From positions 642,871-706,870 of the forward strand of contig CAWHHU010000010.1 of the NCBI GenBank assembly GCA_963829295.1: a DNA stretch of 64,000 nucleotides, written 5' to 3'. Position numbers and translations under genes: made by a program. The notes beneath the pieces were generated by a model, which had not been told where the DNA came from, did not search any database, and worked only from the letters and a program-made list of their open reading frames with translations. This DNA is from an uncultured Chloroflexia bacterium. Lineage in GTDB: Bacteria; Chloroflexota; Limnocylindria; Limnocylindrales; CSP1-4. Positions 56,230 to 63,792 of the stretch are shown piece after piece. Position 1 is the stretch's first letter. Each line of letters starts with the position of its first letter.

Positions 56230-57675
56230 CTACGGAGCGGGCGAGGTCATCACCCAGCTGATGCTGTTCCAGTCGATCTTGTCGACGAACAGCTGGTCTC
56301 TGATCGTCGACCCCGGCGGTGGGGTGGCCGCGATGACCGGCCCCATCTCGGGTGGCAGCTGGTAGAGCATCTCGAACAGCTGCTTCGCGATCGCAGGATC
56401 GATCACGAACCGGCGCGTCTCCTCGCCGTTCGCGGTGTCGACGACCGCGTACACGTAGGTCGATGGGTTTGCGAGCAGCGGTCCGAAGTCGATCACCGCG
56501 GTCTGCGTCTGGCCGCTCTCGCCGTTGTCCAGCTGTCGCCACGGGAAGTCGCGCGGAGCGTGGAGGACGACGGGCAGCGTGTTGGCCACCTGCAGGCTTC
56601 GGGTGCTGGGGATGCCGGCTCCCGAATACGGGTTCTGGAGCTCGGTGACGATGGTCCGGATCGTGTCCTTGGCCTCGCTGCGACACGTGTCGTCGGCCGT
56701 GGCGCAGCGGAGTGCGAGCCCGTTGCCGAGGGCCACGTCGTCGCCGGTGACGCTGAGCGTGAAGTCGCCCAGTGAGAGCGGCTTGGGGGTGGGCGAAGGG
56801 GTGGGGCTGCCCGTCGATGGCGCGGGCGATGAGGAACCGTTCGGTGACGCTGATCCGCCCGCGCTCGGACTCGCCGAGGCGGTCCCGGGTGCCGAGGTCA
56901 AGGACGCGGCGAGGCTCGGTTCGGGCGTGCCCTTGGGGGCGAACGGCCCGAGCCCGGCGGCAAACGCGACGGCGCCCAGGGCGAGCGCCGCCACCAGGAG
57001 ACCGGCCATCGGTGGAATCCAACCCGGCAGCATCGGACCCTGGCTGAGCGTGGCGCGCAGCTGGATCGGCGCCTGGCGTCCGGGCGCGACATTGACCTGG
57101 AATGGCCGCGAGCGCCGGGGCCCGAACGGGAATGGGTCATCGACGCGGACCGCGACCCCGAACCCGGCCTGCTGGTCGGGCTGGATCACGGCGCGACCGG
57201 GGGTCACCGTCAACCGCAGGCGGCGGTCGGGGTCGACCGCGTCGACCACCACCTCGACCGGGGCATTTCCGTGGTTGTCGACGGCCACGTCGTGACGTGA
57301 CCCTCGACTGCCGCGTGAGGTCTGGGGCGCGACGTCCGCACTGATGGCGCTGAACGGCGTGACGGTGACGCGCCCCTCCTCGACCGTCGAGCCTCGCGGA
57401 TCCGCAGCGGGACGGACGCGGACGCCGAACGGCAGCGTGCCCGCCCTCGGCTTGCTGGCGCGCGGCGGCGCGAACGTGATCGTGGCCGTGCCCTCGGCGC
57501 CGGGGAACAGTGACAGCGAGGGCGGATCGACCCGGACCCAGCCGGTCACGCCGACGACGTCGACGTCGAAGCGGTCGACGATGGAGCCCGAGTTGCGGAC
57601 GCGGATGGTGGTCGAGGCCTGCGCACCCGCGTCGACGGCGAGATCGATCGGGGCGAGGGTGGCGACGGCGGACAT
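56230..57675 (-). CDS. Single-pass membrane protein: two N-terminal Ig-like beta-sandwich repeats - TM - Ser/Pro-rich linker - C-terminal globular domain (hypothetical)
   Basis: Repeats of I-V-N-G...D-F-V-V...ITF-PPR pattern, TM GLLVAALALGAVAFAAGL, SPS/PTPSP linker. Local GC is lower than in the neighbouring housekeeping genes. Confidence 0.6.
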   Translation of the reverse strand: MSAVATLAPIDLAVDAGAQASTTIRVRNSGSIVDRFDVDVVGVTGWVRVDPPSLSLFPGAEGTATITFAPPRASKPRAGTLPFGVRVRPAADPRGSTVEEGRVTVTPFSAISADVAPQTSRGSRGSRHDVAVDNHGNAPVEVVVDAVDPDRRLRLTVTPGRAVIQPDQQAGFGVAVRVDDPFPFGPRRSRPFQVNVAPGRQAPIQLRATLSQGPMLPGWIPPMAGLLVAALALGAVAFAAGLGPFAPKGTPEPSLAASLTSAPGTASASPSAGGSASPNGSSSPAPSTGSPTPSPTPKPLSLGDFTLSVTGDDVALGNGLALRCATADDTCRSEAKDTIRTIVTELQNPYSGAGIPSTRSLQVANTLPVVLHAPRDFPWRQLDNGESGQTQTAVIDFGPLLANPSTYVYAVVDTANGEETRRFVIDPAIAKQLFEMLYQLPPEMGPVIAATPPPGSTIRDQLFVDKIDWNSISWVMTSPAP

Positions 57676-57722
57676 CAGGCGCAGTCTATCGGGATGGCCG
57701 CTCGAGTGGCAGCCGTTCGCTT

Positions 57723-57734
57723 GCCCGATCGGGC
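57723..57734. promoter_or_regulatory. Perfect 12-bp palindrome GCCCGATCGGGC in the divergent promoter region between the two membrane-protein genes
   Basis: Read from the sequence. A related half-site ATCGGGA occurs 30 nt upstream. Confidence 0.3.
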
Positions 57735-57814
57735 CGTGTGGCGGACGCGGCGCGAGGGAGCTCGACGGCGGCCGCTAGACTGTCGCCCTGTCTTCGGCGC
57801 GGAGGAGCGGACGC

Positions 57815-62400: not shown

Positions 62401-62517
62401 ATCGAGGCACGCGAGAGCGCCGGCGACACGGGTGCCGCATCGCGCGACCGCCGCGAGTACGCCGCCATCCTCGAGGGCCTCGGGGTCGCCGAGCCGGTCT
62501 CGATCAGCGCTCCCTGA
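59470..62517 (+). CDS. Large chimeric transcriptional regulator: MalT-like STAND ATPase N-terminus + C-terminal SARP (OmpR-type wHTH + BTAD) domain
   Basis: Walker A APAGSGKTT, MalT signature TEGWAAGLQLF. C-terminal ITTLGGFGLDVDGRRVPL...LLRLLAVH...LQEALWPD... is SARP-like. GTG start. Confidence 0.75.
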   Translation: MRWRTPLRDGNRPARSARGPDPFHAPLVVPAKIRIPAPEALARSRLESRLREAWRHRLTLVVAPAGSGKTTLVARFAASAGVPVGWYRAESWDADEASFVRHVEAALAGVLPGLNDGSGTVDDLARALETHPVPVAALVIDDGHALEGTAAESALGRFVDYAPPWLAVLIAGRVPPSINLPRLRVSGELLELDQDDLRFRAWEVEQLFRDVYHDPIPPADLAVLARRTEGWAAGLQLFHLATRGRPVEERRRVLGSAGVSGRLLREYLAQNVLFGLPEQLRGFLVETCVLGRLSGPLCDRLLGSGGSQAKLDELARRSVFTVPVEDADDTYRYHSVLRQHLDRMLVEAFGEVEARVRHRRAGELLEADGALPEALSAYCRAEDWDAVRRLLGRQGEHLAAAGRSGWVDAVPPAIERHDPWVALASARRARNNGRWVVATEGYLHAETMFGPSRAADAPRRERQVIAAWLDPTALPTADAAGVLRSGLVREPLTVARDGAPADDPAMPVTRGLLALAAGDVAAARRQLSQAADSGETGPLAGAAARLGALVAACLGGDAWDPMVLDRAVEAAERAGSPWLARLGRTLAAELDGSSAAGGPRGIGREQVAPGGTGGGGDDGGGRQDQDPWAPALQLLARAWARSEDAEARHRTADGAATAFRRLGAGVLEAWSRGLAAMASAAMGSADAREAALVAESAGRAAGTQAPRLFAYAALAEVDDAHAADYELMAEAVAADTGLTLQRADQQADRVGRPAAVAGVGQPDRTAAHGNGAGPSIRITTLGGFGLDVDGRRVPLDGTKPRVRTLLRLLAVHTGTPVHREVLQEALWPDAGAAAGGRNLHVALSALRRWLDEVAAPVGGQLVERDGDAYRLALPAAAVDLGRFDEAMAEARAARSRGEVATPALSAAVGTYAGDLLPEEGPSEWVVVRRDHYRQAAVEAARGLAEASLLAGDLATAVRACRFGLELDRYQDALWRILIEARESAGDTGAASRDRREYAAILEGLGVAEPVSISAP

Positions 62518-62550
62518 GGACCGCGGCCCCCGGAGGCGCGAAGGACGCGC

Positions 62551-63792
62551 TCAACCTTTGGTGAACAGCTCGATCTCGGAGATCGACACCGGCGTCCCGT
62601 CCGGACCGTTGGTCGAGGTGACCTTGATCGTCATCGAATCGACGCCCGACGCACCGAGGTCGAACGTCTGGGGATCGTGCGTGTCCTGCAGGGTCAGCGT
62701 GGCCGTGCTGCCGTCGGAGTAGTCTAGCTCGAGGGTCGCCGGCCGGCGCATGTCTACGAACGCATCCGCGTTGCCGATCCGGATGATCACCGCCCCCAGG
62801 TTGACCGGTTGCTTGAACTTGACGGTGATCGCCGGCGAGCCGCCGGTACCCTGCCAGTCGGTGTTCACGAAACCGTCGAACGCCTTCTTGGCCTCGTGTC
62901 CGGCCGCCTCGCTGCTTGCGGAGATGGAGCCCGGATCCGGGTGCAGCGGCAGCAGCGGCGGGTTGATGACCTCGCGCACGCGATCGATCATGCCGGGGAT
63001 CCCGCCGGAGGTGAGGTCGGCGACGTAGCCCCTCCAGGACGGAAAGCCGACGTAGCCGAAGATCCCGATCATGACGACGATCCCGAGACCGGCGACGATG
63101 ATGGTTCGGACCTTGAGCAGCTGGCGGACCCCGGACCTGACCCCCGAGCCGGGTGAGCCGGCCTTCATGGTCGAGACGCGCTCACCGGCGGTGTACTGCC
63201 TGGGCGACCTGCGGCTGCGGCGGAAGATGCGACGCCACCAGGGAAGGGGCTTTGCGGTCACGACCTGGGCCGCGACCAGGCTATTGCCGCATCGCCGGCA
63301 GAACTTGCGGTTCGGATCGTTGGGCTCACTACAGCTCGAGCAGATCCGGTCGCCCGGCTGCGCCACACGGCGTTCGACGCTGGTGGCCGGCCTGGGGCGG
63401 GTGGCGACCTGGGCGGTTGGCACCCGTGCTGCCGGCTGAGCGGCCTCGCCGGGAGCACGCCCCACGGCGCCGACCGGCGCGGAGATGGCTGCGTCGGGTC
63501 GGCGGCTGGGGGGCTGTTGCATGGCGGTCGGCGGTCGGGCAGGAGGCTGTGCCGTGGGCTGCACTGGAGCTGGCTGCACGGGTGCGGGCTGCACGGGCGC
63601 GGGCTGGCTGGCCGCCGGCCGGACCGGCGGTCGCGCGGGTGGCTGCGCCGGCATGCTCGTCGGGGGAGTGACCGGCGGCCCGGATGTCGCCGTCGGGGGT
63701 GTCACGGGGATCGTCGATGGCGGGACTGCCGGTGGCGTCGCGGCCGGGATCGCCCCAGGGGTGGTCTGGTCGGTAAATGGCACCCGGAACAC
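62551..63792 (-). CDS. Pro-rich (PAPVQ repeats) - zinc ribbon - TM - jelly-roll/discoidin-like extracellular domain protein
   Basis: CSSCSEPNDPNRKFCRRCGN ribbon, TM IIVAGLGIVVMIGIFGYVGF, C-terminal beta-rich domain (AITVKFKQPVNLGAVIIRIGN...ISEIELF). The true start may lie upstream of the first ATG. Confidence 0.65.
   Translation of the reverse strand: MFRVPFTDQTTPGAIPAATPPAVPPSTIPVTPPTATSGPPVTPPTSMPAQPPARPPVRPAASQPAPVQPAPVQPAPVQPTAQPPARPPTAMQQPPSRRPDAAISAPVGAVGRAPGEAAQPAARVPTAQVATRPRPATSVERRVAQPGDRICSSCSEPNDPNRKFCRRCGNSLVAAQVVTAKPLPWWRRIFRRSRRSPRQYTAGERVSTMKAGSPGSGVRSGVRQLLKVRTIIVAGLGIVVMIGIFGYVGFPSWRGYVADLTSGGIPGMIDRVREVINPPLLPLHPDPGSISASSEAAGHEAKKAFDGFVNTDWQGTGGSPAITVKFKQPVNLGAVIIRIGNADAFVDMRRPATLELDYSDGSTATLTLQDTHDPQTFDLGASGVDSMTIKVTSTNGPDGTPVSISEIELFTKG

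Follow-up and report, generated by a model that had tools for sequence, protein, structure and literature searches.

What are four non-housekeeping genes doing directly downstream of a long run of core genes in an uncultured soil bacterium? The locus closes a 64-kb window (the whole stretch of DNA that was analysed, 64,000 nucleotides) from a metagenome-assembled genome (MAG) of Limnocylindrales-type Chloroflexota. The first 56 kb of the window carry core housekeeping genes (EF-G/EF-Tu, ribosomal protein genes, SecY, RpoA, GlmS and Alr), and the housekeeping stretch upstream of the four genes, hereafter g1 to g4, also includes TsaD, KsgA, GlmU, ProRS and PPDK. The four genes had been singled out earlier from the letters alone (the sequence-only reading) as a non-housekeeping module. 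Their open reading frames (ORFs) are present at 56230-57675 (-), 57815-59257 (+), 59470/59488-62517 (+) and 62551-63792 (-), and profile scans bear out the domains assigned to them.

We find that g1-g4 are very probably the accessory genes and the regulator that flank a contractile injection system (CIS), a phage-tail-like nanomachine, resembling those of clade IId; Streptomyces CIS of this kind assemble in the cytoplasm and kill the producer cell under stress. The genes had been called unrelated to their housekeeping context, which is true of the left flank, as the rest of the window is housekeeping, and untrue of the right flank, which in relatives consists of CIS genes lying beyond the window. 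What was observed is the domain content of the genes, their homology to Streptomyces genes in equivalent positions and the statistics of gene neighborhoods; from these we infer the presence of a CIS in this genome, the functions of the four proteins, the contact between ribbon and baseplate and the targets of g3.

A probable CisA-family gene, beside baseplate genes in relatives

The strongest evidence comes from g4, which comprises the following features:

62551..64000, minus strand: g4, predicted CisA (Sco4242)-family membrane adaptor, 5'-truncated at the window edge
62554-62928, minus strand: discoidin/CBM32-like outside domain (NADase_discoid, 4e-16; AlphaFold2 and Foldseek)
63037-63111, minus strand: transmembrane (TM) helix, residues 228-252
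63268-63354, minus strand: membrane-proximal zinc ribbon, CxxC-x12-CxxC, residues 151-172
up to base 64000, minus strand: Pro-rich linker in an open frame, with the N-terminal ribbon and the start codon outside the window

The sequence-only reading had g4 ending at 63792 as a protein of 413 aa, yet the frame stays open through base 64000, so the 413-aa ORF is incomplete. Its orthologue in a relative at 82% identity (locus L002) has 790 aa, of which the C-terminal 358 align with g4 at 85% identity; this protein also has a long Pro/Glu repeat and, at its N terminus, a further zinc ribbon. An AlphaFold2 (AF2) model of the ordered part of g4 reached a mean predicted local distance difference test score (pLDDT) of 81.7, with the C-terminal domain above 90. 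Foldseek matched the model to CBM32, F5/8-type-C, lectinolysin and APC10 jelly rolls, in agreement with the jelly roll first proposed. Among 31 family members (alignment A1), the cysteines show little or no variation, and neither does the PW..R motif after them. For the g4 family, a positive-inside charge bias of 72:1 favors a predicted N-in topology. A search with the ordered part found only 106 clusters of homologues, metagenomic for the most part. Across phyla the family keeps one layout, in which a Pro-rich linker of 100-700 aa separates the N-terminal ribbon from a second one, and a TM helix and a ~200-aa domain follow.

The family extends into Streptomyces. An alignment of g4 with S. griseofuscus WP_366607373.1, which runs from the ribbon through the TM helix to the C-terminal domain, shows 32% identity (E 3e-29). 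The gene of this Streptomyces protein lies directly after Tail_P2_I, which is the cisA position; S. massasporeus and S. graminilatus have further members. According to Vladimirov et al., Sco4242 (CisA) is encoded after the baseplate wedge genes; ~50 of its residues form a Cys-rich stretch that probably binds Zn, a TM helix is strongly predicted, and a C-terminal domain of ~150 residues resembles carbohydrate-active ones (PMC10020575). Casu et al. named the C-terminal part a sugar-binding domain (PMC10066040). CisA is an N-in/C-out membrane protein needed for contraction and cell death (PMC12237407). Like CisA, g4 has a disordered cytoplasmic arm, a membrane-adjacent Cys4 segment, one TM helix and a carbohydrate-binding-like outside domain of ~150-200 aa, and its relatives are encoded directly after the baseplate genes cis11/cis12. 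Unlike CisA, g4 belongs to a Chloroflexota host, and its family has a far longer Pro/Glu-repeat linker, giving proteins of up to ~1000 aa. The C-terminal domain was called solute-binding-like for CisA (in the eLife paper), whereas that of g4 has a clear discoidin/CBM32 fold. We found no mention of the N-terminal ribbon of g4-type proteins in the papers searched, and the word 'zinc' is absent from PMC12237407. We assign g4 to the CisA family with high confidence. Because published lists of Sco4242 homologues contain Actinomycetes only, and Roseiflexus CIS loci reportedly have no close cisA homologues (PMC12998442), yet homologues are regular in this other Chloroflexota lineage, their occurrence here is an extension of the published range.

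We next considered what lies beyond g4. The cluster had been expected to continue past the 3' edge, and it does: in relatives at 82% (L002) and 56% (L003) identity, ProRS ... PPDK-g1-g2-g3-g4 is followed at once by Tail_P2_I, then by a gene of Baseplate_J size (648 aa) and by gp25, PAAR and VgrG, with CIS_tube/LysM and gp19-type tube genes farther on, an order that matches the S. griseofuscus CIS. In the genome of the window, the structural genes (Tail_P2_I, Baseplate_J, gp25, PAAR, VgrG and tube) would most probably start just past base 64000 on the minus strand. Chloroflexota CIS have been placed in clade IId (PMC12998442).

To gauge how general this arrangement is, alignment A1 was scanned on one genome per GTDB species, which gave 80 loci, and neighbors were counted by tblastn with the window proteins and the relative's baseplate proteins. 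Most loci came from MAGs labeled 'uncultured Chloroflexia' or Ca. Limnocylindrales, with others from Kribbella, Streptacidiphilus, Acidimicrobiia and one Dormibacterota genome. The counts were as follows:

Baseplate genes directly upstream of the g4 homologue on the same strand: Chloroflexota-type 50/50, Actinomycetota 12/13, Dormibacterota 1/1
g3 (all three parts) convergent and <=2.5 kb from the g4 homologue: Chloroflexota-type 55/55, Actinomycetota 2/13, Dormibacterota 1/1
g1 N-module near the g4 homologue: Chloroflexota-type 16/50, Actinomycetota 9/13, Dormibacterota 1/1
g2 propeller near the g4 homologue: Chloroflexota-type 16/50, always together with g1 (16/16); Actinomycetota 0/13, Dormibacterota 0/1

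In loci without the g1-g2 pair, PPDK comes directly after g3. Because PPDK abuts g3 wherever the pair is missing, the layout is best written as CIS-g4-g3-[g1-g2]-PPDK, with g1-g2 as an optional block.

Several further observations concern these loci. In g4-type proteins (L002 14713-17085 (-), and loci L006-L089), the cytoplasmic linker consists of an extreme repeat, either Pro/Glu ('PEPEPE') or Pro-rich, whose length differs between species, from ~100 to 700 aa, and in many long-read MAGs the genes are frameshifted inside this repeat and hence annotated as two or three fragments. Baseplate proteins of these Chloroflexota (L006-L085) are 49-58% identical to those of Streptacidiphilus (L056, Streptomycetaceae), far above the expectation for the distance between the phyla, which agrees with the placement of Chloroflexota CIS in clade IId and with the horizontal transfer proposed for this clade (PMC12998442). 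Locus L003 has a 219-aa metallo-beta-lactamase-fold gene between g3 and g4 (14579-15238 (-)), with a weak match to Apyc1 (anti-Pycsar), and a Kelch-repeat gene inserted upstream, near an FNR gene. The full Chloroflexota-type g4-g3 layout also occurs in MAGs labeled 'beta proteobacterium' and 'Verrucomicrobiia' (L051 and L043), probably through mis-binning rather than transfer.

Shared zinc ribbons and the divergent g1-g2 pair

The ribbons of g4 recur in g2, which has the same order of parts and a different outside domain:

57815..59257, plus strand: g2, 480 aa, CisA-type two-ribbon module and PD40 propeller
57815-57901, plus strand: ribbon 1, matched by the g4-family ribbon-1 profile
58037-58111, plus strand: ribbon 2, matched by the g4-family ribbon-2 profile
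58157-58243, plus strand: TM helix
58244-58441, plus strand: Ser/Pro linker
58442-59254, plus strand: PD40 beta-propeller, predicted extracytoplasmic (Pfam PD40, 7.9e-34)

Pfam matched g2 to DZR in addition to PD40 (7.9e-34). With profiles built from both ribbons of the g4 family, ribbon 1 of g2 was matched over its full length, FLEW tail included (independent E-value 3.7e-14), and ribbon 2 at 6.6e-10, in identical order; within the window these g4-derived profiles had no match other than g2. Across 1.47 Mb of loci, every full-length ribbon-1 match (92/92) fell in a g4-type gene, some of them split by frameshifts, or in a g2-type gene. Ribbon 1 is an N-terminal module of 29 residues with the consensus MIVCGKCGHQNEDSDAFCGSCGSFLEWTG. 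It also heads five g1-family proteins of other lineages (E 1e-12 to 1e-15) and the g4 homologues of S. graminilatus, Nocardioides and an Acidimicrobiales MAG. The g2 family has a positive-inside bias of 21:2, which again favors N-in, so that both it and the g4 family support the zinc ribbons being cytoplasmic, as first proposed. Ser, Pro, Thr, Ala and Gly make up ~90% of linker residues in the cluster proteins.

TolB and PD40-propeller peptidase sensors share the PD40 beta-propeller, which in g2 is predicted to lie outside. Unlike them, g2 has no TolB N-domain, Tol-Pal context or peptidase domain, and instead carries an N-in TM anchor behind two zinc ribbons; its score against the TolB model was 134 bits, compared with a cut-off of 343. 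Around distant g2 homologues (43, 41 and 36% identity), gene order is unchanged. On balance, though by a modest degree, these data favor g2 as a second adaptor or sensor, in which the propeller replaces the discoidin domain, and ribbon 1 may be the common handle of CIS-linked membrane proteins, most simply one for docking to the baseplate.

In S. griseofuscus (L086 11455-16490), the cisA homologue is followed by a PAAR gene, a g1-type gene and a divergent gene whose 985-aa product has a TM anchor at its N terminus and carries PD40 repeats, a pairing that echoes the divergent g1/g2. We rejected orthology between g2 and this TM-PD40 protein, as the similarity is at the level of repeats (E 0.007).

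The second member of the pair, g1, is organized differently:

56230..57675, minus strand: g1, 481 aa, probable Sco4256-58-type CIS-associated protein
57031-57675, minus strand: N-module with two PapD/ASH-type Ig domains (Pfam Cep192_D3, 6e-10; ASH)
56938-57024, minus strand: TM helix
56791-56937, minus strand: Ser/Pro linker
56233-56790, minus strand: lineage-variable C-terminal domain

The first 170 residues of g1 are 35% identical (E 6e-27) to the product of a gene beside the cisA homologue of S. griseofuscus. Among ~30 relatives derived from the loci, the N-module is constant and a TM helix falls at ~216-247 in nearly all, and the C-terminal parts are of at least three unrelated types (alignment A2). 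An exhaustive search with residues 1-250 yielded 4027 representative clusters. Of 103 family members scanned, 89 matched Cep192_D3 and others HYDIN/VesB, FixG_C, ASH or PapD_N; their C-terminal domains included ricin (Actinomadura), PD40 (3), Kelch, PASTA, LGFP and fn3. Pfam found nothing in the C-terminal domains of ten g1-family members, and a single-sequence AF2 run on g1 gave a pLDDT of 39 and no usable fold.

This organization is that of Sco4256-58, in which a shared N-terminal domain, likened by HHpred to pilus chaperones, precedes a single TM helix and a C-terminal domain that varies and is a ricin-type lectin in Sco4257/58. These proteins are toxic in E. coli, and in the triple mutant, which behaves like CIS mutants, the tube lumens are empty (PMC10020575, PMC10066040). 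Homologues are known from Cyanobacteria and Chloroflexi, including Roseiflexus in published BLAST lists (PMC10020575). In common with these proteins, g1 has a PapD/ASH Ig N-module, a single TM helix, an exchangeable C-terminal domain and a link to clade-IId CIS. It differs in that its own C-terminal domain is another, unrecognized one and that its gene, paired divergently with g2, is found on the far side of the regulator and so outside the structural cluster; some family members, again unlike Sco4256-58, carry a CisA-type ribbon or a PD40 domain. By its layout g1 is very likely of the Sco4256-58 type and, by analogy with those proteins, most likely cargo, that is, an effector.

The region between g1 and g2 contains three candidate expression signals:

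57682..57688, minus strand: TAGACTG, -10-like element for g1, with the hexamer ending 7 nt ahead of the ATG, a leaderless-mRNA geometry
57776..57782, plus strand: TAGACTG, -10-like element for g2, with a leader of ~26 nt downstream
57801-57807, plus strand: Shine-Dalgarno sequence GGAGGAG of g2, 7 nt ahead of the GTG start

TAGACTG occurs just twice in the 64-kb window, once per strand, and both copies, which form an 11-nt imperfect inverted repeat, lie between g1 and g2. They are kept in place in orthologous loci and are missing in loci without the g1-g2 pair. TAGACTG is a putative promoter element, and its geometry suggests that the g1 mRNA is leaderless. A consensus scan for promoters and terminators found none. 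We rejected TAGACT as a cluster-wide motif, given its restriction to the g1-g2 intergenic region.

These data also bear on whether the pair belongs to the CIS at all. Conceivably only g4, and perhaps g3, do, and g1-g2 are an unrelated divergent pair (a surface Ig protein and a TolB/peptidase-like propeller) that owes its position to shared ancestry in one sub-lineage. The presence of g1-g2 in just 16/50 Chloroflexota-type loci, with PPDK otherwise abutting g3, fits neutral insertion too, the pair has its own promoter motif, unseen elsewhere in the loci, and g2 resembles the Streptomyces PD40 protein at repeat level only. However, in Actinomycetota and Dormibacterota, where synteny is otherwise absent, the g1 N-module is again found no more than a few kb from g4 homologues, and g1 fits a published CIS-effector family. 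Both ribbons of g2 correspond in type and order to those of g4, and this ribbon type occurs in no other gene in the 1.47 Mb. Some g1-family proteins contain a ribbon or PD40, which implies that modules are exchanged within one functional set. We therefore regard an unrelated pair as unlikely, and retain g1-g2 as part of the CIS flank.

A STAND regulator with a terminal SARP module

Between g2 and g4 lies g3, with these features:

59488..62517, plus strand: g3, ~1009 aa, STAND transcription regulator; alternative GTG start at 59470
59554-60675, plus strand: MalT-like P-loop NTPase and arm (NCBIfam PRK04841 match)
59659-59682, plus strand: Walker A, PAGSGKTT, intact; Walker B is ALVIDD
60676-61866, plus strand: Ala-rich helical sensor region
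61867-62028, plus strand: OmpR-type winged helix (Trans_reg_C)
62101-62472, plus strand: BTAD (Pfam BTAD)

The TTG start at 59488 has GGTGGAG ahead of it and agrees with the gene calls in L001 and L002. The sequence-only reading had described g3 as a chimera of MalT and a Streptomyces antibiotic regulatory protein (SARP), and the profile matches uphold this. Residues 29-402 match positions 3-388 of MalT (NCBIfam PRK04841, 6.7e-53); the score of 180 bits is below the 537-bit equivalog cut-off, as only the N-terminal half of the MalT profile is matched. AAA_22 is also found (Pfam, 8e-7). At the other end, BTAD (residues 878-1001, 2.1e-7, 31.9 bits) is over its cut-off of 22.1, and Trans_reg_C (residues 800-853, 1.2e-4, 22.5 bits) is under its cut-off of 26.2. 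The same Trans_reg_C and BTAD pair, together with WHD_MalT, is annotated in g3 orthologues. The winged helix-turn-helix (wHTH)-BTAD module thus occupies the last 220 residues of a protein whose N terminus is a MalT-like NTPase, and a Pfam scan of the C terminus found no GerE/LuxR match.

Judged by these matches, the architecture fits neither the MalT/LAL nor the usual SARP layout. Like MalT/LAL regulators, g3 has a P-loop NTPase with arm, intact Walker A and B motifs and a helical sensor region, but those proteins end in a LuxR helix-turn-helix (HTH), whereas g3 ends in a SARP module. SARPs such as ActII-ORF4, DnrI and AfsR carry their DNA-binding wHTH-BTAD module at the N terminus. The same two domains make up the module of g3, where they are C-terminal.

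A functional parallel is available in S. coelicolor, in which transcription of the sheath operon depends wholly on the cluster-linked AAA+LuxR protein SCO4263, of 1251 aa (PMC2000904, PMC3466318, PMC8505568). Both g3 and SCO4263/SlpR are NTPase-containing transcription factors of >1000 aa at the edge of a CIS cluster. They differ at the C terminus, which is a LuxR-type HTH in SCO4263 and an OmpR-type winged helix plus BTAD in g3, and the g3 locus lacks the TTA/bldA control of SCO4263/SlpR. Because of its fixed position beside g4 and this precedent, we consider it reasonably probable that g3 is a cluster-specific CIS activator, the counterpart of SCO4263/SlpR.

Against PADLOC models, g3 had hits to BrxF (9.5e-4) and mad8 (6.7e-3), each over ~30 residues and at the level of the P-loop, and an anti-phage STAND (Avs/bNACHT-like) role was rejected with no match to a known defense-system model. 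'TCGAG'-like words near the -10 elements were rejected as SARP sites, as they are not conserved in the alignment.

A membrane-docking model and its alternatives

Our favored explanation is as follows. With two zinc ribbons and a long disordered Pro-rich arm in the cytoplasm, one helix, and a discoidin (glycan-binding) domain towards the wall, g4 would, by analogy with CisA, bring the baseplate to the membrane and license firing. As a second adaptor or sensor, g2 would use the shared ribbons to link another envelope cue to this machine. g1 would be cargo, transcribed divergently from g2 by way of the twin TAGACT -10-like elements, and g3 an ATP-dependent STAND switch whose terminal SARP DNA-binding module activates the cluster. 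A bolder version, which we consider possible but doubtful, makes ribbon 1 a dedicated baseplate-binding module for CIS addressing which, fused to various outside domains (discoidin in g4, a PD40 propeller in g2) and to some effector-type proteins, would yield interchangeable membrane triggers that connect different envelope cues to the same machine, with the ATP switch of the STAND-SARP protein timing production. If true, this would amount to a modular input layer for cytoplasmic CIS that is so far undescribed.

Of the factors that tell cytoplasmic CIS to dock at the membrane and fire, CisA alone is known so far; its contact with the particle is unseen, and it was thought confined to Actinomycetes. 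Here, CisA-family genes appear as a constant component of CIS clusters across a large group of uncultured Chloroflexota from soil, and also in Dormibacterota, along with a short zinc ribbon common to CisA-type proteins, a PD40-propeller paralogue and some effector-type proteins, and a conserved STAND-SARP regulator beside the adaptor gene. These provide testable candidates for the docking interface, for extra input sensors and for transcriptional control. For annotation, four genes listed as 'hypothetical / zinc ribbon / TolB-like / AfsR-like' become parts of one system. Two of the four families, CisA/Sco4242 and Sco4256-58, are already described in Streptomyces (PMC10020575, PMC10066040, PMC12237407); new are the range of phyla with CisA, the ribbon module that these proteins have in common, the PD40 paralogue and the STAND-SARP regulator.

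Several points weigh against this explanation. The window ends 208 bases into the upstream part of g4, so that the CIS genes were read in relatives only, and PPDK is likewise syntenic, meaning that gene order within the lineage is by itself no proof of function. Our survey gauges how often a CIS lies beside g4, not how often g4 lies beside a CIS. SCO4242 and SCO4256 are linked to g4 and g1 through other Streptomyces and actinomycete proteins rather than by direct alignment; a search with a Streptacidiphilus family member as query found Streptomyces proteins, S. coelicolor SCO4242 not among them. For g2, support across phyla consists of the shared ribbons and a non-orthologous TM-PD40 gene near a Streptomyces cluster. 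SARP-type heptamer direct repeats with 11-nt spacing are absent from 57676-57814 and 59258-59487, and the regions ahead of g3, g4 and the baseplate genes showed no TAGACT, which bears on the targets of g3. Sequence and profile searches against PDB chains found no recognizable fold in the C-terminal domain of g1, and the charge bias of the g1 family, 38:69, lends no support to N-in. The sequence-only reading had three surface proteins built to the same logic, which stands for the g4 and g2 families, both predicted N-in, and does not for g1; because its family lacks the N-in bias, we do not endorse g1 as a surface protein. Cargo whose helix acts after delivery would fit these charge data.

Docking at the producer's own membrane has a competitor in a released, extracellular CIS, in which g4 would be a tail fibre or receptor-binding protein, the first reading of Sco4242, rather than a membrane anchor. 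The gene does sit at the tail-fibre position and its product ends in a glycan-binding fold typical of receptor-binding proteins, and mass spectrometry found Sco4242 in purified particles (PMC10020575). Nevertheless, g4 has a strongly predicted TM helix and its family the 72:1 bias, and CisA is by experiment an N-in/C-out membrane protein, absent from the purified particle and the cryo-electron microscopy particle model (PMC12237407). Clade-IId CIS of Streptomyces and Roseiflexus have, moreover, been observed inside cells (PMC10066040, PMC12998442). This makes an extracellular particle improbable, and a membrane-docked, cytoplasmic CIS the better account.

Base composition gives no sign of foreign origin. 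The cluster had been described as lower in GC than its flanks, which was taken to suggest an acquired or fast-evolving module; instead, g1-g4 have a per-gene GC of 0.71-0.74, compared with 0.712 +/- 0.028 for the other window genes, and GC at third codon positions (GC3) of 0.84-0.88, compared with 0.865 +/- 0.044. In 2-kb windows, GC is 0.71-0.75 across the cluster and 0.68-0.70 immediately upstream, where the adjoining PPDK gene is at 0.69. As GC, GC3 and GC skew are all undistinctive, we rejected the acquired-island reading.

Nor do the data suit the earlier proposals of anti-sigma-like or one-component signaling and an undescribed envelope-sensing system. The ribbons are CxxC-x12-CxxC rather than the HxxxCxxC of zinc-binding anti-sigma (ZAS) proteins, the gene calls of L002 and L003 contain no sigma factor domain, the flank is that of a CIS, and two of the four genes belong to described Streptomyces families. 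An autonomous envelope-stress or surface-sensing module, with ribbon proteins signaling to the STAND/SARP regulator independently of any CIS, would explain the cytoplasmic ribbon-TM-outside beta-domain layout that g2 and g4 share with transmembrane signaling proteins, the position of the regulator gene between them and the speculation that CisA is a stress sensor (PMC12237407), but is highly improbable given non-ZAS ribbons, no sigma factor gene called in the loci of two annotated relatives, g4 homologues tied to baseplate genes in 63/64 loci from three phyla, g4- and g1-family members within Streptomyces and Kribbella CIS clusters that lack g3, and GC that does not deviate. Under the CIS reading, envelope sensing may still be part of the role of g2 and g4, as triggers or anchors of the injection machine.

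PHROGs and PADLOC scans gave only noise at the level of P-loops or ribbons, and readings as phage proteins or defense systems were rejected. Elsewhere in the window, the part with the highest GC (~0.75) is 31400-34950, between the alanine racemase and tsaB/tsaD genes. Its ORFs, which had no Pfam match at 1e-5, are long on both strands: 32136-33737 and 33704-34891 on the plus strand, and 31427-34948 on the minus strand.

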